From: Candidatus Bathyarchaeia archaeon
GTDB taxonomy: Archaea; Thermoproteota; Bathyarchaeia; Bathyarchaeales; Bathycorpusculaceae
Direction: 5' to 3'
NCBI GenBank assembly: GCA_050010515.1
Contig: JBEKKX010000005.1
Location: 14,698 to 78,697, forward strand
Length of the DNA: 64,000 bases
In this document: positions 7,397 to 43,473 of the stretch, one piece after another
How the letters are laid out: each line of letters starts with the position of its first letter
Numbering within the stretch: position 1 is the first letter of the stretch
The notes under the pieces: model-generated
The model's input: only the letters and a program-made list of their open reading frames with translations
What the model was told of the DNA's origin: nothing
Database searches by the model: none
Made by a program: the position numbers and the translations under genes

Positions 7397-7560
7397 CGCT
7401 CCCAATATCATAATTTTTTCTTAGGGCTATTTTTCTTGGACCCATTTAGTACAGCTTAGGCTTTTTAAGATCTGTATCTAAAAAGAAAGTAAAGCGAAGA
7501 AGCGAAAGAAAAAAATACTTTAATGTATGCTTTTATCATATTCTATCTGAAGCGTTTTGC

Positions 7561-25648: not shown

Positions 25649-25778
25649 GTAAAACGCCTGATGAAATTATTAATCAATCCATATGTTAGTTAGTCCCTTA
25701 TTTCGTGTGAAATATGGCAAACCCTTAATAGTCTTTTCAGAAAAGGATAATTGCTGTTCAAAAGGGGAAGAAGGTAAT

Positions 25779-26990
25779 ATGCAAAATCGCCCAGCCATAG
25801 TTGCTGTTGGCAGAACCAAGTTTGGGGAGCATTACGGCAAAGAACCAGAAAAACTAATTGAGGAAGCTTGGCTTGCCGCTTCAAACGAATGCAACATAGA
25901 ACGCAAGGACCTAGAAGCCTGTTACATGTCAGATTGTTTTCTTCCAATCACAAATAAACTAGGCTTAGAAGAAGGCTTTCTGTCAGAACTCACCGAACTT
26001 CACGTGCCCATGGAAGTAACCCGCTCTTTCAGCGCTGCATTGTTAACCGCTTGTCACGCAATTCAGGCTGGAGTTTACAGCACGGTTCTTGTTGGTGGCA
26101 TAGAAAAAATGACTGACCGCTGGGACAAAATACGTGATGACCTCATGCTTTTGGAAGACCCGTGGAGCTACTATGCAGGTGGGACTCCGGAAGCAAATCA
26201 TGAGCTTATGCTTAGAGCTTACATAAAAAAGCACAATATAACCGGCGAAAATCTTGACAAACTCAACATCGCTCTAGCTCAGGTGTCAGTTAAAAACCAT
26301 GCGAACGCAGCCAAAAACAAGTATGCTCAGTTCCAAAGAAAAATCACTGTTGACCAAGTCTTAAACGCGCGGAAAGCAGCGCATAAATCCTTGGGGCTCT
26401 ATGATTTTGCCCCAATTTCTGACGGCGCATCAGCCTTGATTCTTGCAAGCGAGGCAGTTGCCAAAAAGTTGAGTGCCAATCCAGTTTACGTTTTGGGCTG
26501 CACTTCAGCTACTGATTACCTGAATTATTCAGCAAGAGAAGACCTGTCCCATTTTGCCGCGACTGAAATTGCCATGAAGAATGCTTCTCAAATGGCTAAA
26601 ACAGCTTTGTCTGACATGCAGGTTATCGAAGTAAACGACCAGTCAACCATGATGGAGCTTGTTTCCCTTGAAGATTTAGGCTTTTGCGAACCGGGAACAG
26701 CTTGGAAGAGCATATATGAAAGCTACCAAAATAACCAAAACTGCTACGAAATAAAGGGTAGGCAACTTTTCGTTAATACGGATGGCGGGTTAAAGGCAGA
26801 TGGAAACCCGTTAGGCGCCACTGGCGGGGCACAAATTTTTGAGATTTACCGCCAGTTAAGAGGTGAGGCTGGCGAACGCCAAGTTTACGTTGATAAAGGT
26901 TCACCGAAGAATGGTTGTGTGTTAGAGTTTGAGGGCTTTGGAACTAAAGCTTACGTTAGTATTCTAGGAGAGAAGAAAGATGAGCAGTGA
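25779..26990 (+). CDS. Thiolase-fold protein lacking canonical catalytic residues
   Basis: GRTKFG, GGIEKM, KNH.NA, PISDGASA and GATG..Q are conserved. There is no ACASG Cys, and EVHD reads EVND, GHP reads GNP. Confidence 0.85.
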   Translation: MQNRPAIVAVGRTKFGEHYGKEPEKLIEEAWLAASNECNIERKDLEACYMSDCFLPITNKLGLEEGFLSELTELHVPMEVTRSFSAALLTACHAIQAGVYSTVLVGGIEKMTDRWDKIRDDLMLLEDPWSYYAGGTPEANHELMLRAYIKKHNITGENLDKLNIALAQVSVKNHANAAKNKYAQFQRKITVDQVLNARKAAHKSLGLYDFAPISDGASALILASEAVAKKLSANPVYVLGCTSATDYLNYSAREDLSHFAATEIAMKNASQMAKTALSDMQVIEVNDQSTMMELVSLEDLGFCEPGTAWKSIYESYQNNQNCYEIKGRQLFVNTDGGLKADGNPLGATGGAQIFEIYRQLRGEAGERQVYVDKGSPKNGCVLEFEGFGTKAYVSILGEKKDEQ

Positions 26991-28488
26991 ACCGATAGAG
27001 CGACGGGTTTCTTATTTAGGTGACAGGTTACGAGCAAGCCGCTGTCAAAGTTGCGGCAAAGAATACTTTGAAGTCAGAGACTACTGTAGCAACTGTGGCA
27101 GAAAAAGCTTCGGAAAAATGGATAATATAGACCTGTTTTACGATAAAGGCAAACTTGAATTATGCACATTCATCAATGAACCCACAAACAAGTTCACTAA
27201 ACTCTCCAGCTTCGTTTATGGAATTATTTCTTTTCATGATGGTAAAATCCGCGTTCCAGGAAGGCTAACTGACCAGTTGATAACTGATGATGACGATGTT
27301 GATTTTTCAAGCCTTGAGGGAAGAGAAGTGGTTCCGCGTTTTAGAAGACGCTATTCAGTCGGCCAAAGCGACATGATTCCAACAATATCTTTGGCTTTCA
27401 CGTTAGCCGACGAGTACTATCCGCACCAAGAGTACAGCGTACTCACGCCAAACAAAGAATACGACATCCCTGGAGTAATAGGTTACGGCGTTTACACTTC
27501 AAGATTTCGAATAAAAGAAAGCGGACTCGAACGTGCTGTTCCATTCATCGACGAAGATGCAGTAACAGCCTCAGTAGAGGCTGGGAAACTAGCGCTGATT
27601 CATTCAGGTGTTGACAGCAGGCTGGTTGGCAAAGTTTATGTTGGCTCAGAATCCAACCCGTACGCAGTTAAGCCAATCGCCTCAAAGGTAGCTCAAGTTC
27701 TCAAACTTGGCGAAGAAGACGGCGACATTCAAGGCGTTGATGCAGTGGACACGGAGTTTGCTTGTAAAGCGGCTACAAGCATGTTTAAAGACGCAGCCTC
27801 CCTTGTTAGCTACCCACGGTCAGATATAAAATACGCCATGGTTATTGGCGCAGATAACGCTCAAGCAGCACCCAGAGGTTGCCTTGGCGGTGAACTGGAT
27901 ACGTTTGTTGGGTACGGCGGCGCCGCGTTTATTTTCGGAAAACATGATGTTATCGCTGAAGTTGAAGGATGGTACTCATGCACGTCTGATACGCCCGATT
28001 TTTGGCGCAGAGACGGCGAGCCTTTTCCGATGCATGGTGGACGATTCACCGGTGACCCAGCTTATTTCAAGCATGTCCGCAAAGCAACATGTAAACTTAT
28101 GGAACGCTTTAACCTGAAGGCAAGTGATTTGAACTATTTTGTGGCGCATCAGCCTAACCCCCAGTTCCCAGTTAAGATAGCAAAGGAGCTTGGTTTTAGG
28201 GATGAGCAGTATTTGCCTTCGCTTCAAATTAACAAGTTCGGCAACACTTATTCCGGTTGCTCGCCTGTGGGTTTAGCTGCAGTATTAGACATTGCAGAAC
28301 CTGAAGAGCGTATCTTAGTTGCAAGTTACGGTTCAGGTGCGGGAAGCGACGCGTATTTGCTTAGAACCACAAGCCAACTTGTTGATAAGCGAAAGCGCCA
28401 AAAAGTTAATGTTAAATTCCAAGCTGAAAACCCGTTTATACAATATGTGGATTATACAACTTATCGTCGGCTTAAACTTGGGATGTAA
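26980..28488 (+). CDS. DUF35 (Zn-ribbon/OB) fused to HMG-CoA synthase
   Basis: N-terminal CQSCG...CSNCG zinc ribbon plus OB region. C-terminal ESNPYAVKP, FACKA, HQPN, GNTYSG and SYGSGAGSD. Confidence 0.92.
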   Translation: MSSEPIERRVSYLGDRLRASRCQSCGKEYFEVRDYCSNCGRKSFGKMDNIDLFYDKGKLELCTFINEPTNKFTKLSSFVYGIISFHDGKIRVPGRLTDQLITDDDDVDFSSLEGREVVPRFRRRYSVGQSDMIPTISLAFTLADEYYPHQEYSVLTPNKEYDIPGVIGYGVYTSRFRIKESGLERAVPFIDEDAVTASVEAGKLALIHSGVDSRLVGKVYVGSESNPYAVKPIASKVAQVLKLGEEDGDIQGVDAVDTEFACKAATSMFKDAASLVSYPRSDIKYAMVIGADNAQAAPRGCLGGELDTFVGYGGAAFIFGKHDVIAEVEGWYSCTSDTPDFWRRDGEPFPMHGGRFTGDPAYFKHVRKATCKLMERFNLKASDLNYFVAHQPNPQFPVKIAKELGFRDEQYLPSLQINKFGNTYSGCSPVGLAAVLDIAEPEERILVASYGSGAGSDAYLLRTTSQLVDKRKRQKVNVKFQAENPFIQYVDYTTYRRLKLGM

Positions 28489-28559
28489 CAAATACTTTAA
28501 TTTGCCTTTCTGCCGAGTCACATATTACGCTTTTTAGGTTTGTTTGGTTGTTCATTTAC

Positions 28560-28775
28560 TCAAATCTCCTCTGGAAACATCGGGTCGCCGAATTCCATCA
28601 GTCCATCGCCTTCGCTGTCTTCTTGCGCGGATTCTCTGCTTTCCCGTTCTAACTCTTCAGCTTCGAGAAGTTCTTTTTCAGTTGGTTTCTTAAAGTTTTC
28701 GCCATTCAGCCATTTTCTGAATCTTTGAGCTAAAGTCGGTTTAGGCTTTTGTGTTTCTGTCATGCGCATCATCAT
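28560..28775 (-). CDS. Small hypothetical protein of the element
   Basis: 71-aa ORF, basic N-terminal half and acidic C-terminal half, TATA-like sequence upstream. Confidence 0.5.
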   Translation of the reverse strand: MMMRMTETQKPKPTLAQRFRKWLNGENFKKPTEKELLEAEELERESRESAQEDSEGDGLMEFGDPMFPEEI

Positions 28776-29627
28776 TTATCTTTATAGCAATGGCAAACGG
28801 CTATATAAATCTGCCTCAAATTAGCCTTGAATCCAGTTTTTAACCTAATTGCACAACAGAAATACAAAAACAAGCCCAAAACAAGCCCAAGTGCCACATA
28901 CCCTCAAATTTGGGGAAAATTTGATTTTAGCCACGGATTTTTTAGTGTTTCCTAAACCGTTTACCGCAATCCCTACATTGCCCTTCTTTGCATAGGGTCG
29001 GCGAAATTCGATTTAATTTGAAAGAGGACAGACTCTCAAACCTTTCAGTTTTCCAATGGCTCAGGTGGCTCGGGAGTTGAAGAAAACAAGGTACATAGCC
29101 CGCTTTTCTGCTGAAATTTGATTTTTCTGCTTTCAATTCTCAAATCTTCAGTACGGTTGATTAAAAATCGCAAGGCAGTATTTTTTATCGAACCTTCAAG
29201 GTTTGAGGGTATGTCACTATTTAGCTTGTTCTGGGTCTAGTCTGGATTCATTAACAGTTTTTGCTATAGGTATGTGGTACAAGCGCGGGCTTACACTTTT
29301 TGTTATGTGTGTATCGCGGGGTGTGTGTGCGGGGGCGGGGGCTTATGCTAAAGCGAGACTTTGACTATTCCCCCCTTTTTAACCCCCCTTCCCCATTTCC
29401 CTAACCTAATCTAATCTAACCAGTTGAATAACTAACTTACTCTTACTCTCAACTGCTCTAAAAAAGATGGGGTGTGTTGACTTGGGGTTTGCCCGCGTAG
29501 TGCGGGGTGTGGATAGAGGGGGTTTGGGGCTTTGTGAATTTGAGCATGGGGTTTCTCGGCGAAGGTTTATATGGGAGTCGTGTGTCGTGTGTATTCAGAT
29601 AAAGTAAATAAGAAAATGGTGAAATAA

Positions 29628-30257
29628 ATGGTTGGAAGTAAAACCTCTGGGAACCCGTATAGCATACCGATAAACTACGATAGGGAAATAGGTGAACCCA
29701 TCATTTTTATAATTCGGAAAAAGGGGTTTGGCAAAGGCACTTATGCGGGTATGGTTCTTATGCAGAATTTGAAGGATGAAATCTTTGCATATTGGAAAGA
29801 TAAAGGTGAAGACCCTCAAGTTCTCTGGGATAAGTGGTTTCCTAAATGGTCAATGATGGAAGCTGAACAGAAAGAGATGAGAAACAAGGAAGCAAAGGAA
29901 GCGCATAACTTATTAGTGAATCAATATGTAGGTTTAGGCGAACTAAAGGAAAATGCGGAAAACTTGGCGTCTTTGTTTCCTGATAGTAACCCGTTAGATG
30001 TTCTCAGGGGAAAAAACTATAATACCCAGAACAAACCGATTGAGCAAAAATTAGAGACGATTGAGAATAAACAAGAAAAAACAGAACATCAAAAAGCTCT
30101 TATGAACGAGAAACAGAGTCTTGAAACAACTTTAAAGCAGTATGAGAGAACCCCAGAGTTTAGAGTTAGATTGCACAGAATTGCAGAAATCGAAAGAGAA
30201 CTAAGTGAAGAACAACCACAACAGCAAGCAGAGCAACAGCAACAACCGCATCCATAA
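29628..30257 (+). CDS. Hypothetical coiled-coil protein
   Basis: 209 aa, GGTGA RBS and TTTATA promoter upstream, Q-rich tail. Confidence 0.7.
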   Translation: MVGSKTSGNPYSIPINYDREIGEPIIFIIRKKGFGKGTYAGMVLMQNLKDEIFAYWKDKGEDPQVLWDKWFPKWSMMEAEQKEMRNKEAKEAHNLLVNQYVGLGELKENAENLASLFPDSNPLDVLRGKNYNTQNKPIEQKLETIENKQEKTEHQKALMNEKQSLETTLKQYERTPEFRVRLHRIAEIERELSEEQPQQQAEQQQQPHP

Positions 30258-30280
30258 GTTTCTTTTTTTAGCAGTTGGCA

Positions 30281-30310
30281 AAGTCTTAAATTCGCATAGC
30301 ACTAAATAAT
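30281..30310 (+). promoter_or_regulatory. Cassette-head promoter motif, copy A
   Basis: AAGTCTTAAATTCGCATAGCACTAAATAAT upstream of ATG 30332. Confidence 0.6.
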
Positions 30311-30331
30311 TAAAAATGGGAACGGTAGGCT

Positions 30332-30865
30332 ATGGATAAAGAGGAAATTTTGTATTATGCAAATAGATATGATAAAGATTATTTAGAAAAGTGGATGCGA
30401 ACAGAACGAGAGTTGGGTGATAAATTTCGAAAAACAAAAGAAGTAACAAAAGAGGATTTGGTTAAAATAGTGTGGTGGAAATTTGAAGGGTTGAAGGGTC
30501 GAAGGGATAGAATACTGAAATATGTTGAGAAAGATAGTGATGAGGAAGTATGTGCGTGTTCTCAGGTTTTTAATCTTACTACCCGTGAAGATTCATTTAG
30601 GATAGGCGTTCTTGACAATCTTCAAGGTGTTGGTCCAGCTTTAGCAAGTGTTGTTTTAACGTTCTATGACCCTAAAAACTATGGTGTGTTTGACATCCAC
30701 GTTTGGAGAGAATTCTTTGGGAAAGAGCCTAAGAACCTCTTTGGAAGTAGCCGTTATTACATTACACTTCTCTCTGAACTTAGAACGATAGGAAACAAAT
30801 ATGGCTTAAATGCAAGGACTGTAGAAAAAGCCTATTTTAAGAGAAACTATGAAAATTCAAAATAA
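30332..30865 (+). CDS. HhH-motif (HhH-GPD-like) protein
   Basis: LQGVGPALASVVL...YGVFDIHVWR. Confidence 0.7.
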   Translation: MDKEEILYYANRYDKDYLEKWMRTERELGDKFRKTKEVTKEDLVKIVWWKFEGLKGRRDRILKYVEKDSDEEVCACSQVFNLTTREDSFRIGVLDNLQGVGPALASVVLTFYDPKNYGVFDIHVWREFFGKEPKNLFGSSRYYITLLSELRTIGNKYGLNARTVEKAYFKRNYENSK

Positions 30866-30900
30866 ACAACATTCAATATACCAATTGGGTTTTCGTGGAT

Positions 30901-30930
30901 AAGTCTTAAATCTGCACAACGTAGAAATAG
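30901..30930 (+). promoter_or_regulatory. Cassette-head promoter motif, copy B
   Basis: AAGTCTTAAATCTGCACAACGTAGAAATAG; ATG 6 nt later. Confidence 0.85.
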
Positions 30931-30936
30931 CATAAC

Positions 30937-31428
30937 ATGACAGAAAAAGTTGCTAAAGAGTTTAAAGGCAATGTTGGCATTTTTCTTGTAGCATCAAAAC
31001 TCTCAGCAATGAATATTATCGCCTTAACAACTTCAAGAAATACTAAAGGTTACGATATCGTAGCTCTTAATCCTGAGACCAATAAAGGTAAAGGAATACA
31101 AGTTAAATGTGCTGATGTTCTATCCAATAAGAAAGAAGATTTCCCAGTAGTTAGTGCATTATTCAGAACTATGCATGAAGAACTTTGCAAAAAAATTATT
31201 TGCGATTTTGTGTTTGTTGATATCTCTAATATTGAACAACCAAAATTTTTCATACTTTCAAAAGATGAAGTAATTAATATCATAGAAACAAACACTAAAG
31301 TATGGTTAGCAAGGAAACACAGAAAACCACCTGAAGAAAGCAACAAGAAAATACTTCATACAATCAAACGGTCAGAGATAGAGAAATATGAGAATAATTG
31401 GAATCAAATTCTGCAAGATTTATTATAG
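30937..31428 (+). CDS. PD-(D/E)XK-type nuclease
   Basis: G.FLVA..L, RNTKGYDIVA, IQVK motif. Confidence 0.75.
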   Translation: MTEKVAKEFKGNVGIFLVASKLSAMNIIALTTSRNTKGYDIVALNPETNKGKGIQVKCADVLSNKKEDFPVVSALFRTMHEELCKKIICDFVFVDISNIEQPKFFILSKDEVINIIETNTKVWLARKHRKPPEESNKKILHTIKRSEIEKYENNWNQILQDLL

Positions 31429-31677
31429 CTATATTGTATAATCTTTAGGTGTTTTTTTTGGATAAAGATTTTTTAGCAGGTCATAAACCAAATTGCCTAA
31501 TATTATCGCTATAAACAAGAAAAATCCACTCCACCAATCTATTTGATACCTGTTTGAAATGTGTGATACTCCTAAAAAGTTAATCGCAAGAATGCTAAAC
31601 ACAACTATAGCAGAGATACAAACTGCAAAATATAGAAATTTAGTGATTTTGGATGCTGTGTTCTTTTTTGAGTTCAT
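31429..31677 (-). CDS. Small two-TM membrane protein
   Basis: Two hydrophobic segments; diverged cassette head (copy C) at 31689-31719 on the minus strand. Confidence 0.6.
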   Translation of the reverse strand: MNSKKNTASKITKFLYFAVCISAIVVFSILAINFLGVSHISNRYQIDWWSGFFLFIAIILGNLVYDLLKNLYPKKTPKDYTI

Positions 31678-31846
31678 ATCTAACTATTCTATTTACATTG
31701 GTGTGGGGTTTTAAGGCTTTTGTGATGGGTTGGTTATACCCTACCCCTTTGTATTTTTGACTTTTTGTCGGTTTATGGCTTTTTAATCAACTGTTTAATC
31801 AGCGAAAAACATAAAAAGAATTAAAGAAAAGAAGGGGAAAAGGGGT

Positions 31847-33082
31847 TTAGAAGTCTACTTTTTCGGGTCTTTTGCGTTCCTTTTCCTCTTTCAGTTTTTG
31901 CTGTTCCTCAAAAGTAGCTTTTAATTGGTTAAAGTCTGTGAGCATTTTGTTTATACTTAAACCGTTATCAAGGCATCGCTGTTCAAGTAACGTGATTCTT
32001 TTCTCCTTTTGCTCCAGAACTTTTTCCAATTCTGTTTTCTGTTGGTTTAGTTCTGCTTTAAGTTCTCCTGTTGTTTCTGGAATCAGATAAGGCAAACACA
32101 TCTTAAACAGCGTTAGATAATCTGAGTCGGGATGATTCGCATATGTTGCTTCTATTCCGCTTGGCTTATGAGAGGTTAAGGGTTTAGCTAAGTTAATGTT
32201 GGCTTTTATCTGTGGCTTTTCAAGAACTGTGCTTATTACGTCTCGAAAATCGTGAGGCGAAAAGTGTTTTTTAATATCGTCTCCAAAAGCAACTATTGAA
32301 GCATTTAGGAATATTGCGTTAAACTGCCTTAATGCACCACCAACAACCGAACCGTAAGGATTGCTATAATAACACATGAACAGCGGCGAATCCTCATCAT
32401 AGCTGATTTCTCTTTCTTTGAGTTCTTTTTTGTAGTCTTCAAATTTTTCATTCGCATAACTATGTAGAAAACCGATATGTTTAGTTCCTTTGTACTTGCC
32501 TTTTCCGTGACCTTTCAGCCTTGCCGACTCAATACTTATCCAATACGGAACTTCTTTATCATCTAAGGGTTTTAGGTCTCTCATTTTTAGCGTTCTTAAT
32601 GTTCCTTTTCGAACAGGGCAACTTTCAAGAAACCAAACTAAAAATTTGTCTCTTCTGCACGTCATAGCATTTTCAAGTTTTACGCAATCATCAACGCTTG
32701 GAGTTCTCTTTTTAGCTTCAGGAACTTCTATGTTCTCTCCGACATCTTTAGCTAAGTCTCTGCCTCTTGTAGATGAGTAAAAACTCTTAACCGCTGTTAA
32801 AACTCCCAATTGTACGCTTGGAGTTAAACCGCTATTATCCAGATAGTTCTCTAATAATTCCTCTGCTTGGAATTCTTTTTCTGTTGCTGGATTCTGTAGA
32901 CCTTCAAGTTTTAACGCAATCAATTCATCGGGATTCTTTTTAGCCCAATCGCAATAGTGTTTAAGTTTTCTGGTATACTCTGTTTCTGTGTCACCGCTAT
33001 TCTTTAATTTCTTATTGTAAAAGTTTTGACCGCTAACGAAACTTAATAGCCAAGTCTTATTATCGTCTGTCATTCGACTCAA
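31847..33082 (-). CDS. Tyrosine recombinase/integrase
   Basis: Catalytic R (PVRKG), K (RLKG), HxxR (PHDFR), H (TSHK) and Y (ATYA); C-terminal coiled coil. Confidence 0.88.
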   Translation of the reverse strand: MSRMTDDNKTWLLSFVSGQNFYNKKLKNSGDTETEYTRKLKHYCDWAKKNPDELIALKLEGLQNPATEKEFQAEELLENYLDNSGLTPSVQLGVLTAVKSFYSSTRGRDLAKDVGENIEVPEAKKRTPSVDDCVKLENAMTCRRDKFLVWFLESCPVRKGTLRTLKMRDLKPLDDKEVPYWISIESARLKGHGKGKYKGTKHIGFLHSYANEKFEDYKKELKEREISYDEDSPLFMCYYSNPYGSVVGGALRQFNAIFLNASIVAFGDDIKKHFSPHDFRDVISTVLEKPQIKANINLAKPLTSHKPSGIEATYANHPDSDYLTLFKMCLPYLIPETTGELKAELNQQKTELEKVLEQKEKRITLLEQRCLDNGLSINKMLTDFNQLKATFEEQQKLKEEKERKRPEKVDF

Positions 33083-33211
33083 AGATAGTCACCCCTTGAA
33101 AAGTTAAAGTTTTCCTTGATTCTCGGGCAAAAATTCAATATGTGACTTGATACGGGGACAAATACTTTAATAAATCACGTGTGAACTTCACATAACGACG
33201 GAGCCTACAGA

Positions 33212-34492
33212 TTGATTCTCGATGACATACCGCAAGTTATTTATGCGCCTGTAAAAGTGTTCAAGAAAATAATTGAGAACCCAAAATACTTGGGCGCAAT
33301 AATAATACTGCTTCTTTTCATAGTCGTACAAATTGGATATGGCTATTCACAGATCTCGAAAACTTACATAGAAGATACATCGCCTACGATTGGTCATTTA
33401 TCAAACTACATCAATGCAACAGCAACATCATCAAATGGAACATTATGGAGCGCTGGTACTGGCACAGCCTTAAGCAACAATTATGCTGACTTCTACAACT
33501 ATAGTGTTTACATTCCAGCGATTGCAACTAACTATAGTTTATTTGGAAACAACAGCCTAGAAATTAACTCCACAAACACTAACAACGTTTCGGCTACCTT
33601 AAGCAACGCTTTCGATGTGAACTGCGGTGCTGGCGGCTTTGAAAACTTTTCAATGACACTAAAAATGGTGGAGCCTCAGGTTGCGCCTCAAAGTGCAGCC
33701 TTAACTCTCTACTCACCTAACGATTCAAACTATTACATATATGACTTAACTTCTTCCTTATCAAACACGACAGCAATTGGGTTATGGACCAACTTAACCA
33801 TTCCAGTTGGACCAGCTGCCCAAGGTTGGACTAGTGGCGGCACACCAAACTGGGGCAATGTGACAGCTCTAAAACTAGACTTTACATACCCAGCTAATTC
33901 CAACATAACCATACTTATTGGTGCCTTATTCTTCCATGGCCAATATCAAACGTTCATTCAAGCCTCTGGCACTGGGATCATAATCTCGTTCTTAGAGGCC
34001 TACTCTTTACAGTTCATTTTTACCTGGTTCATATTAACAGGGCTAATTTACATCTTCTTCAAATTGTCAAAAGCCAAAATCACTTGGAAACCTCTTTTTA
34101 TCGCTTTAGCTTTTGCTTTGTTTGTGATGGTTATTAGATCAATAATAAACCTTGTTGCGACATTTACCTTACCCACAGTTTATTATCCCTTTGACGTGTC
34201 GCTTGGGGTAACCTCTAATCCTTTTGGAGCTTTATATGTCCCTGCACAAGCAGCAGTCACCTTTACAGCGCAGTCTCAAGCCGTTCTCAAAAATATTATA
34301 GCAAAGACTTCAGTTTTCAACTTTGTAGTTGAAGCGATGTTTTTCATTTCTTACGTTTGGTTAGGTGCCTTATGCACAATAATTGTTGGAACACTCAAAC
34401 CAGAGTTTTCAATGATAAAGAAGATAGCGATTTCCGCTGTCAGCATAGCAGCTACGCTTTTGCTATTGCTTCTGCTGGTAGGTATTGTTTAA
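33212..34492 (+). CDS. Yip1-like membrane protein with a large extracellular domain
   Basis: N-terminal 'P.K.FK.I.ENP' plus TM helix, N/T-rich middle, several C-terminal TM helices. Confidence 0.65.
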   Translation: MILDDIPQVIYAPVKVFKKIIENPKYLGAIIILLLFIVVQIGYGYSQISKTYIEDTSPTIGHLSNYINATATSSNGTLWSAGTGTALSNNYADFYNYSVYIPAIATNYSLFGNNSLEINSTNTNNVSATLSNAFDVNCGAGGFENFSMTLKMVEPQVAPQSAALTLYSPNDSNYYIYDLTSSLSNTTAIGLWTNLTIPVGPAAQGWTSGGTPNWGNVTALKLDFTYPANSNITILIGALFFHGQYQTFIQASGTGIIISFLEAYSLQFIFTWFILTGLIYIFFKLSKAKITWKPLFIALAFALFVMVIRSIINLVATFTLPTVYYPFDVSLGVTSNPFGALYVPAQAAVTFTAQSQAVLKNIIAKTSVFNFVVEAMFFISYVWLGALCTIIVGTLKPEFSMIKKIAISAVSIAATLLLLLLLVGIV

Positions 34493-43395: not shown

Positions 43396-43473
43396 TGGCG
43401 GGCCCGACGGGAATTGAACCCGCGACCTACGGATTAAGAGTCCGCCGCTCTAGCCTGACTGAGCCACGGGCCC
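43396..43473 (-). tRNA. tRNA-Lys(CTT)
   Basis: Acceptor GGGCCCG/CGGGCCC plus GCCA, anticodon arm GCGGA-CT CTT AA-TCCGT, T-loop GTTCAATTC. Confidence 0.96.

Follow-up and report, generated by a model that had tools for sequence, protein, structure and literature searches.

A small integrated element of a Bathyarchaeia archaeon and its tyrosine recombinase family, whose clades probably use different promoter core sequences as attachment sites

Introduction

Small mobile elements bounded by direct repeats are already known from archaea, and the closest described systems are the cryptic integrated elements of thaumarchaea. In the main text of the study describing them (Krupovic et al. 2019, PMC6563490), 15 of 68 elements lie in intergenic regions and 14 of 68 in protein genes, the attachment sites are short (a 17-bp figure is given, and no more than seven are longer than 25 bp), the smallest elements measure 2.6 kb, and many elements have no identifiable replication protein. 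Here we describe a 4.7-kb element at positions 28488 to 33171 of a 64,000-nucleotide (nt) stretch of contig JBEKKX010000005.1 (assembly GCA_050010515.1, positions 14,698 to 78,697), which we call the window; the host is a peat-soil archaeon of the Bathyarchaeia, and its genome is referred to as G000. Like the thaumarchaeal elements in the text cited, the window element is small, is bounded by direct repeats, and has a tyrosine integrase as its only recognizable gene. It differs from them in the class of its host, in a very divergent integrase family with a C-terminal coiled coil, and in that sites at about −40 of housekeeping genes are used by several clades of this family; the main text of PMC6563490 does not contain the word "promoter".

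Other systems share single features with this element. The PsiM100 prophage of Methanothermobacter wolfeii and phage lambda use AT-rich intergenic attachment sites and leave the neighboring genes unharmed, according to the excerpted text of PMC8371274. These are full head-tailed viruses, unlike the window element. Lambda Int carries an arm-binding domain and uses IHF, whereas the integrase of the window element matches two-domain Xer/Cre-type chains. XerA, Cre, and the integron integrases (PDB 5hxy, 4a8e, 1crx, and 2a3v) have in common with it the two-domain fold and the R-K-HxxR-H-Y catalytic set, but these chains are 12 to 17% identical to the window protein, which has an extra C-terminal helix of about 65 residues; XerA, moreover, acts at a chromosomal dif site, whereas the window gene belongs to a mobile element with a left (attL) and a right (attR) attachment site. 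Archaeal integrases are divided into an SSV type (type I) and a pNOB8 type (type II), with labels and definitions that are partly those of the excerpted text of PMC8371274. By gene layout the window integrase is like the pNOB8 type, as in both the gene is kept intact and the attachment site lies outside the open reading frame (ORF). The tRNA-targeting integrases (Williams 2002, as cited in the excerpted text of PMC8371274) follow the same logic, in that a short, constrained target is restored by the duplicated core. They restore the 3′ or 5′ half of a tRNA, whereas the window element restores a stop codon and an apparent promoter core consisting of a B recognition element (BRE) and a TATA box.

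The kind of element and the intergenic location of archaeal attachment sites are therefore not new, and it is the choice of target that is somewhat unusual. A full-text search, in which supplements were not covered, found no publication describing a family of archaeal integrases directed at promoter or TATA sequences. Published work already covers satellites of haloarchaeal viruses, as far as the excerpted literature goes, and the excerpted text of a study of the Bathyarchaeia virome (PMC10541130) reports proviruses and no small integrative elements. The Bathyarchaeia are abundant and uncultured, and their mobile elements have barely been described.

Results and Discussion

Boundaries of the element

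The element is delimited by an exact 14-bp direct repeat, ACAAATACTTTAAT, whose two copies form attL and attR (Table 1). The 2.38-Mb genome contains no further exact copy, and none of 100 shuffled sequences contained three matches at up to one mismatch. The first base of attL is the final A of the TAA stop codon of a 502-amino-acid (aa) HMG-CoA synthase ORF, and 40 nt separate the end of attR from the TTG start codon (position 33212) of a 426-aa membrane-protein ORF. These boundaries agree to the base with a preliminary description of the locus, which had also placed the insertion outside tRNA genes; the only tRNA genes of the window are at 1528 to 1612 and 43396 to 43473, and the element lies in neither. 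Also present is the 11-bp inverted repeat reported there, AGTCACATATT, the arms of which lie 14 nt inside attL and 10 nt inside attR. Taken as a free pattern, it does not reach significance within the 64 kb (at least two matches at one mismatch were present in 32 of 100 shuffles). It becomes significant only when conditioned on position: 23 of 20000 shuffles and 18 of 20000 random window pairs had an exact inverted repeat of at least 11 nt linking the inner ends, each 60 nt long. It is likely that these arms are the integrase-binding sites of attP, the attachment site of the circular form. The GC content is 0.29 to 0.38 over positions 30000 to 31800, compared with 0.41 to 0.50 in the left flank. 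A copy of the 14-mer with one mismatch, AAAAATACTTTAAT, occurs on the plus strand at positions 7511 to 7524 and may be another promoter core or a secondary site.

The empty site and other occupants of the same spot

The preliminary description had named an empty site in relatives as the thing to look for, and such sites were found. The HMG-CoA synthase gene ends within 1.5 kb of the membrane-protein gene in 11 of 19 loci of same-genus relatives (L018, L019, L020, L022, L023, and L025, in which no synthase gene lay within 1.5 kb of the membrane-protein gene, were left out of the comparison). In genome G009, the two genes are about 55 nt apart with one exact 14-mer between them, and near-identical variants of the 14-mer lie between the same genes in G016, G013, and G020. 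The spacers of more distant relatives are longer (119 to 825 nt), yet a CTTAATAAAT-type box is kept at the same distance from the start codon. An empty junction was also present in a contig of metagenome run X11, where the window sequence from position 33158 onward follows the final 17 nt of the synthase gene. The depth of this empty-junction contig in X11 was about 165, versus about 6 for the element; the left flank in run X10 was at about 75 and the element at about 5, and in run X4 flank and element were both at about 54 to 66. The empty junctions in the metagenomes are contigs of related strains and do not prove excision.

The same spot is filled differently in other genomes. G084 holds a 1.47-kb derivative consisting of int only, with both inverted-repeat arms, no cargo, and an integrase 87% identical to that of the window; the element of the window is thus not the minimal one that it had been taken for. 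The synthase-side repeat copy in G084 differs at position 2, which places the exchange to the right of that base. In G019 (locus L102), an int-less insert of 1809 bp with two genes for secreted or membrane proteins lies between two exact 14-mers, and its right end is identical to the right end of the window element at 31 of 38 nt. G003 (locus L103) has one gene for a 607-aa secreted protein at this spot, with only 8 nt repeated, and a Joint Genome Institute (JGI) metagenome contig from another strain (L161) contains an integrated right end at the same site and repeat. This variety of inserts marks the spot as a strain-level insertion hotspot with a history of the element family.

The integrase

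Searches returned 129 homologues of the integrase, labeled as hypothetical protein, integrase, or XerC/D, with two NCBI rows titled Candidatus Bathyarchaeia archaeon. In an alignment of 26 of these, R158, K190, R280, H305, and Y314 are invariant and H277 is nearly so (at least 90%); candidates for the catalytic lysine were those within the loop of residues 186 to 201, of which K190 is the invariant one. In a profile of the family, the catalytic residues line up with R, HxxR, H, and Y in Pyrococcus XerA (4a8e; E = 4.3e-4), which bears out the retention of the R-K-HxxR-H-Y set asserted in the preliminary description. The family profile was needed for this alignment, since a phmmer search of the PDB sequences with the integrase alone returned nothing relevant. 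The single sequence did match the PHROGs integrase family phrog_1 (8.1e-7). It has no match to Pfam Phage_integrase (PF00589) at E 0.01, whereas 20 of the 26 aligned relatives match that family (best, 2.1e-11). In IMG/VR, the sole match was one distant integrase, 27% identical.

An AlphaFold2 model of the protein (pLDDT 81.5) contains the extra C-terminal helix at residues 339 to 403. When the model was searched with Foldseek, the top matches were XerA (5hxy), IntI (2a3v), and Cre, all at probability 1.00, together with XerH, 46 PDB chains were found at E of 0.001 or below, and no other domain was identified. The order of the conserved residues, together with the predicted two-domain fold, identifies the protein as a member of the tyrosine recombinase superfamily. 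Two narrower assignments were rejected. The protein is not XerA itself: the NCBIfam XerA equivalog scored 21 bits against a cutoff of 220, and the gene lies inside a repeat-bounded insert that relatives lack. Nor is it of the SSV type, as its ORF of 411 aa is undivided, with the repeat outside it at 75 nt upstream of the start. The likeness of the model to IntI is no greater than that to Cre or XerA in Foldseek.

The integrase family and its target sites

Matches to the integrase family at E 1e-10 were found in 38 of 101 genus genomes, G000 included, and many of these are fragments or contain stop codons. Of the 16 loci in named records, 15 carry the title Bathyarchaeia or Bathyarchaeota. The remaining one (L118), titled Candidatus Limnocylindrales bacterium, has a family integrase preceded by a junction sequence that in Bathyarchaeia genomes belongs to the intergenic region between a gene of winged helix-turn-helix (wHTH) type and kae1, and the contig is probably mis-binned. 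Nine of the 17 loci oriented by int have a repeat of 14 to 20 nt that starts 45 to 77 nt upstream of int and recurs 1.5 to 10 kb downstream (L061 was too short for this search).

Four sites recur in the family, namely, the window site, a thermosome site, the wHTH/kae1 site, and, more weakly, a site upstream of ilvC. Three of them were checked against empty sites (the window site, the thermosome promoter, and the wHTH/Kae1 intergenic region). The thermosome site is ATATTTAAATATAAATTTTT upstream of the thermosome gene and is used in G106, G095, and L108; the wHTH/kae1 site, GATA[A/C]AAATATGT[T/A]TCC, is occupied by an element on contig C2 of G000 and in G004, G098, G076, L064, and L118, and G046 was counted here from its Kae1-side junction only; the ilvC-upstream site is TAATTAAGAATT (L112, L114, and L119). 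At kae1, the site is unoccupied in 27 of 30 genus loci, each of which has one conserved copy; in 22 of them it is the exact 16-mer. The three occupied loci have the element-type C variant on the kae1 side, and the mismatches bracket the 8-bp AAATATGT, as expected for an exchange between attP and the chromosomal site attB inside AAATATGT. The thermosome 20-mer was recognized in 17 of 30 loci, where it stands 36 to 45 nt ahead of the start codon, and it is exact in 10 loci, G000 included; 27 of the 30 loci retain GAAAAAYTTATA, which reads as the classical archaeal combination of BRE and TATA box. In a tree of 22 integrases (rows L061, L069, and L119 were dropped as short), the clades follow the sites, with support of 99/99 for the window-site clade and 100/100 for the wHTH/Kae1 clade. 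A comparison of homologues and their targets had been recommended in the preliminary description, and it found that homologous elements end alike, with the repeat about 70 to 77 nt upstream of int, at AT-rich promoter-like sequences.

The second family element of G000 is 5.1 kb long and lies at about 53414 to 58560 of contig C2 (L071, 3414 to 8560), between the wHTH gene and kae1. Its integrase is 48 to 52% identical to that of the window, its 17-nt repeat has two mismatches, and it has inverted repeats at 10 to 11 nt; analogous inverted repeats at these offsets are present in the elements at the wHTH/Kae1 site. Homologues of orf209 and orf71 and part of the noncoding module are shared with the window element. 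The last 55 or so codons of int, encoding the coiled-coil tail, and the DNA just downstream (window positions 31754 to 32010) are 83 to 96% identical in nucleotide sequence to the C2 element, and the rest of int is not alignable with it as DNA. This tail is near-identical among family members that are otherwise 45 to 64% identical, which suggests either that co-resident elements exchange modules or that an interaction surface is under strong constraint.

Larger relatives of 8 to 10 kb are represented by L057 (G095, 8.5 kb), L068 (G098, 9.2 kb), and L070 (G104, 8.3 kb). The genes carried by these relatives encode a ribbon-helix-helix (RHH) regulator, an HK97-gp10-like neck/tail-completion protein (phrog_5, 4e-13), a DUF87/HerA-like ATPase, and an HNH endonuclease, the neck/tail-completion protein and the endonuclease being restricted to L057 and L070. 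No capsid protein was recognized in any of the three. They may be satellites or very small viruses of Bathyarchaeia; given their gene content, the family may descend from virus-like or satellite-like elements, and the window element is a reduced member of it. The window element itself was rejected as a virus satellite resembling the phage-inducible chromosomal islands, as the Pfam and PHROGs scans found no gene for hijacking capsids or packaging in it.

TABLE 1 Features of the integrated element and its host flanks (window coordinates)
Feature	Coordinates	Strand	Description
HMG-CoA synthase gene (left host flank)	26980-28488	+	N-terminal zinc ribbon; Pfam zf-ChsH2 and ACP_syn_III_C; NCBIfam PRK04262, 3.8e-107
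attL	28488-28501	none	Left copy of the 14-bp direct repeat; core common to attP and attB
Left inverted-repeat arm	28516-28526	+	11 bp, inside attL
orf71	28560-28775	-	Small protein with basic N terminus and acidic C terminus; conserved across the element family
Noncoding module	28776-29627	none	34-nt inverted arms at 28875-28908 and 29202-29235; G-rich/C-rich tracts at 29300-29420
orf209	29628-30257	+	Family specific; conserved N-terminal domain of ~140 aa, variable coiled coil
Head 1	30281-30296	+	Promoter-leader motif upstream of orf177
orf177	30332-30865	+	Cargo gene; phrog_24538 (unknown function), 3.2e-8
Head 2	30898-30930	+	Same promoter-leader motif, upstream of orf163; core match 30901-30916
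orf163	30937-31428	+	Cargo gene; phrog_29029; weak PADLOC PDC-S02, 8e-4
orf82	31429-31677	-	Small membrane protein; weak PADLOC PDC-M39A, 3.6e-3
Degenerate head 3	~31704-31719	-	Upstream of orf82; three mismatches; found by eye
int	31847-33082	-	Intact tyrosine recombinase of 411 aa; two-domain Xer/Cre-like fold, long C-terminal helix
Region upstream of int	33083-33136	-	Conserved TTTAACTTTT-type box and GGGGTGA-type ribosome-binding sequence; family sequences aligned by eye
Right inverted-repeat arm	33137-33147	-	11 bp, inside attR
attR	33158-33171	none	Right copy of the 14-bp repeat; carries BRE/TATA-like sequence of the downstream gene
Membrane-protein gene (right host flank)	33212-34492	+	ORF of 426 aa, multipass

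Position of the sites relative to host genes

At the window, thermosome, kae1 (wHTH side), and ilvC sites, the distance between the int-proximal junction and the start of the adjoining host gene is 38 to 48 nt, and this gene is read in the direction leading away from the element. TATA-like hexamers upstream of the 1347 ORFs of at least 200 aa in the genome peak at −50 to −41, and a TTTAAT within attR lies at −46 to −41 of the membrane-protein gene. It is therefore probable from the sequences that the attachment sites act as promoters. The earlier claim that the element targets a TATA-like sequence holds for the position and the consensus, while promoter function is read from the sequence only.

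Model of integration and alternative explanations

We consider it probable that positions 28488 to 33171 are a small mobile element that has integrated and belongs to the cryptic integrated element type, that it was inserted by its own recombinase, and that the clades of the recombinase family use different promoter cores. As in other elements of this type, a repeat-bounded insert with an integrase is combined with an empty site in relatives, and the ORF scans detected no hallmark gene. In the mechanism that we propose, the circular attP would consist of the right inverted-repeat arm, 10 nt, the 14-mer, 14 nt, and the left inverted-repeat arm, and the two-domain Int would recombine it with the identical 14-bp attB of the chromosome. 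Strand exchange would take place within the shared AAATACTTTAAT, inside the 14-mer, so that the 14-mer is duplicated; the left copy would keep the stop codon of the HMG-CoA synthase gene, and the right copy would retain the BRE/TATA-like core of the promoter of the membrane-protein gene, comparable to the restoration of a tRNA by integrases that target tRNA genes. The integrase family, which in the searches made appears nearly confined to Bathyarchaeia records, would have diversified such that each clade uses as attB a different conserved AT-rich promoter core of a housekeeping gene. The window element may still be able to excise.

Several observations weigh against this account. The distribution of this attB is narrow, as the exact 14-mer was found in only 2 of the 19 loci from relatives. 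The attP circle joint (33157 to 28502) was found in none of the Logan contigs of runs X4, X9, X10, and X11, and two JGI contigs that contain the 35-nt right end both run into host flank and have no circle junction; contigs cannot show rare forms, and this evidence is accordingly weak. The repeat search found nothing in 6 of the 17 loci (L059, L063, L064 at a contig end, L065, L067, and L069) and only 10 to 11 nt in L058 and L070. The window integrase itself falls below the Pfam Phage_integrase threshold, and no gene for replication, packaging, or transfer was recognized in the element. The relatives at the same site in G084 and in the strain of L161 fit vertical inheritance as well as repeated integration. 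As for the promoters, conserved AT-rich intergenic words are often promoters by default, whatever the mechanism.

This last point leads to an explanation on which we are evenly divided, namely, that the overlap with promoters is incidental: integrases need a conserved AT-rich word of 14 to 20 bp, and in a compact genome such a word would nearly always be a promoter core, with neither transcription factors nor the function of the promoter playing any part in the mechanism. AT-rich intergenic sites are on record for PsiM100 and for the 15 of 68 intergenic thaumarchaeal elements (excerpted text of PMC8371274 and main text of PMC6563490), the high conservation of the sites in the genus (exact copies in 22 of 30 and 10 of 30 loci) would alone favor such targets, and the Foldseek matches of the integrase are two-domain Xer, IntI, and Cre chains with no other domain identified. 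However, the three checked sites and the weaker IlvC-upstream site all fall in the narrow band of about 36 to 48 nt where TATA words peak. The narrow band argues that promoters are hit but does not separate selection from mechanism. We give little credence to the more specific proposal that the family reads the archaeal initiation platform, with BRE/TATA DNA bent by TBP/TFB serving as the architectural host factor of the intasome, the part that IHF plays for lambda. If true, it would explain how an integrase with two-domain Xer/Cre-type structural matches achieves a directional attP × attB synapse, why the spacing is about 36 to 48 nt with the host gene reading away from int, and how new clades have repeatedly gained new promoter targets. 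Elements of the Ty3 or Tf1 type are known for promoter-guided integration, of which this would be the prokaryotic counterpart.

It is also possible, though we think it rather unlikely, that the element is a relic, that is, a cut-down and now immobile descendant of a virus- or satellite-like element of 8 to 10 kb that has been inherited vertically since before the split of G000 and G084. The RHH, phrog_5 neck/tail-completion, DUF87/HerA-like ATPase, and HNH genes of the larger relatives at other sites are consistent with such an origin, as is orf71, which corresponds to only the C-terminal 55 aa of a DUF87/HerA-like ATPase; G084 and G019 show further decay at the same site, and the circle junction was not seen in contigs. 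What speaks against decay is that the int ORF is intact with all of its catalytic residues, that both repeat copies and both inverted-repeat arms are perfect, and that orf71 is conserved as a stand-alone gene in seven protein clusters. In two metagenome runs, relatives with an empty site are abundant and the strain carrying the element forms a minority, a pattern consistent with gain or loss. A genomic islet formed by homologous recombination at a hotspot, with the integrase as a passenger and the 14-bp repeat as a feature of the hotspot, would account for the unrelated inserts at the same spot (such as the gene for a 607-aa protein in G003, with 8 nt repeated) and for the other spacers of 119 to 825 nt. 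This is very improbable in view of the fixed distance between repeat and int across clades that use different sites, the matching offsets of the inverted repeats, the mismatch patterns expected from an attP × attB exchange, and the way in which integrase clades track sites. Direct repeats flanking the element and inverted repeats near its ends could also be those of a transposon with a 14-bp target-site duplication, an interpretation to which we attach next to no weight: the Pfam and PHROGs scans found no transposase, the sole recombinase is a tyrosine recombinase, the inverted repeats lie 10 to 14 nt inside the ends and are not terminal, the same 14-mer is used in four independent records (G000, G084, G019, and L161), and the site preexists as a single copy in G009.

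The integrase family comes with base-precise attL/attR pairs, three attB sites checked against empty sites, and an exchange region of 8 to 12 bp, raw material for an integration tool in a lineage without genetics. It would also add to tRNA genes and 3′ gene ends a further class of target, the promoter cores of housekeeping genes, restored by duplication. The variable inserts suggest that such promoters are hotspots of strain-level variation in gene content in peat populations.

Cargo genes and noncoding module

The element contains six ORFs (int, orf71, orf209, orf177, orf163, and orf82) and a noncoding stretch of about 850 nt. Searches of the six ORFs against Pfam, PHROGs, PADLOC, and NCBIfam recognized no gene for replication, capsid, packaging, conjugation, or transfer; Pfam, PADLOC, and NCBIfam gave nothing firm for any ORF, and the PHROGs matches other than that of int are to families without known function. 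Homologues of orf71 formed seven protein clusters as a stand-alone gene, with QRF-KWLNG and PEEI invariant. The 8.5-kb relative L057 encodes a DUF87/HerA-like protein of 378 aa whose C-terminal 55 aa are homologous to the orf71 protein, and the C-terminal extension of the G084 integrase looks, by eye, like orf71. The product of orf209 is 40% identical to a 239-aa protein of the C2 element and has only 10 homologues, none of them named; it had no match in Pfam, PHROGs, PADLOC, or NCBIfam, and its model is all helical and poor (pLDDT 66.6, pTM 0.35). The Atlas neighbors of orf177 are unnamed Bathyarchaeota clusters, the nearest named ones being OGG and HHH (each 10% of members), which are weak leads, and a search of PDB sequences gave only a chance-level match (E = 0.043). 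For orf163, the structural neighbors in the Atlas are DUF4365-like, SMEK_N, and NOV_C clusters (TM scores of 0.75 to 0.85), so that a restriction endonuclease-like fold can be mentioned as a lead only.

The noncoding module is shared across integrases that have diverged. Positions 28775 to 29123 are 96% identical over 349 bp to the element of G106, a different species with an integrase only 61% identical to that of the window, and positions 28596 to 29078 are 80% identical to that of G004, despite the fact that the integrases of these two elements are only 45 to 61% identical to that of the window and use other target sites. Folding of the module gave z-scores of −4.2 for the minus and −2.8 for the plus strand, and a search of positions 28300 to 33300 against Rfam gave no match at E 1. 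The module is a candidate for an origin, a regulatory region, a noncoding RNA, or another cis element. A multicopy miniature inverted-repeat transposable element formed by its 34-nt inverted arms (28875/29202) was rejected, as the genome contains the region only once, the one exception being a partial similarity in the C2 element. Beyond the promoter-leader motifs described below and the C2 paralogue, no spacer-like matches to the element were found in the rest of the genome.

Promoter-leader motifs

Upstream of orf177 and orf163 stands a conserved stretch of about 50 nt, here called a head, which comprises a TATA-like core, AAGTCTTAAATYYGCA, followed by a conserved leader that continues to the start codon. 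The core occurs 8 times in the window, against 0.41 expected (at 30281, 30901, 45252, 46044, 46605, 47287, 57161, and 57922), and 46 times in the genome. The preliminary description counted three head-bearing cassettes in the element; two clear heads are present, and the third, upstream of orf82, has three mismatches. Heads precede many different small genes, often for membrane proteins and often in arrays. For 32 of 45 heads, an ORF of at least 45 aa follows within 16 to 61 nt, 19 of these ORFs having a hydrophobic segment. Another head lies within 1.5 kb of 27 of the 46 heads, and the number within 5 kb of a contig end is also 27 of 46. The array at 45.2 to 48.4 kb of the window varies in length among genus genomes, and the conserved flank stops where the first head begins. 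In the metagenomes, the depth at head 2 was 500 to 750, compared with 54 or less in neighboring bins (10- to 100-fold), with many loose ends on both sides.

It had further been proposed that the element is the likely vehicle of the cassettes, and this was not upheld. Among the heads of the genome, only the two copies of the window element lie within 5 kb of any of seven tyrosine recombinase loci, the paralogous C2 element has no head, and G003, without a match to the family integrase, has sequences matching head segments. The element therefore carries two or three such genes and is not their vehicle. Heads are found at the 5′ ends of genes and resemble promoters; candidate roles are those of a mobile promoter, of a boundary at which a cassette system recombines, or of the operator of one regulon.

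Flanking host genes

The membrane-protein gene to the right of the element has orthologues in 31 of 41 genomes, G000 included. It had been called Yip1-like, a label that the searches did not reproduce: the protein has no Pfam match, and NCBIfam gave only a weak hit to YknW_fam (19.6 bits against a cutoff of 110). To the left of the element (positions 25683 to 28488), a thiolase gene overlaps the start of the HMG-CoA synthase gene, which has the zf-ChsH2 (DUF35-type) zinc ribbon at its N terminus. We take zf-ChsH2 to be a separate protein in other archaea, in which case the window gene would presumably represent a fused version of the thiolase, HMG-CoA synthase, and DUF35 trio.

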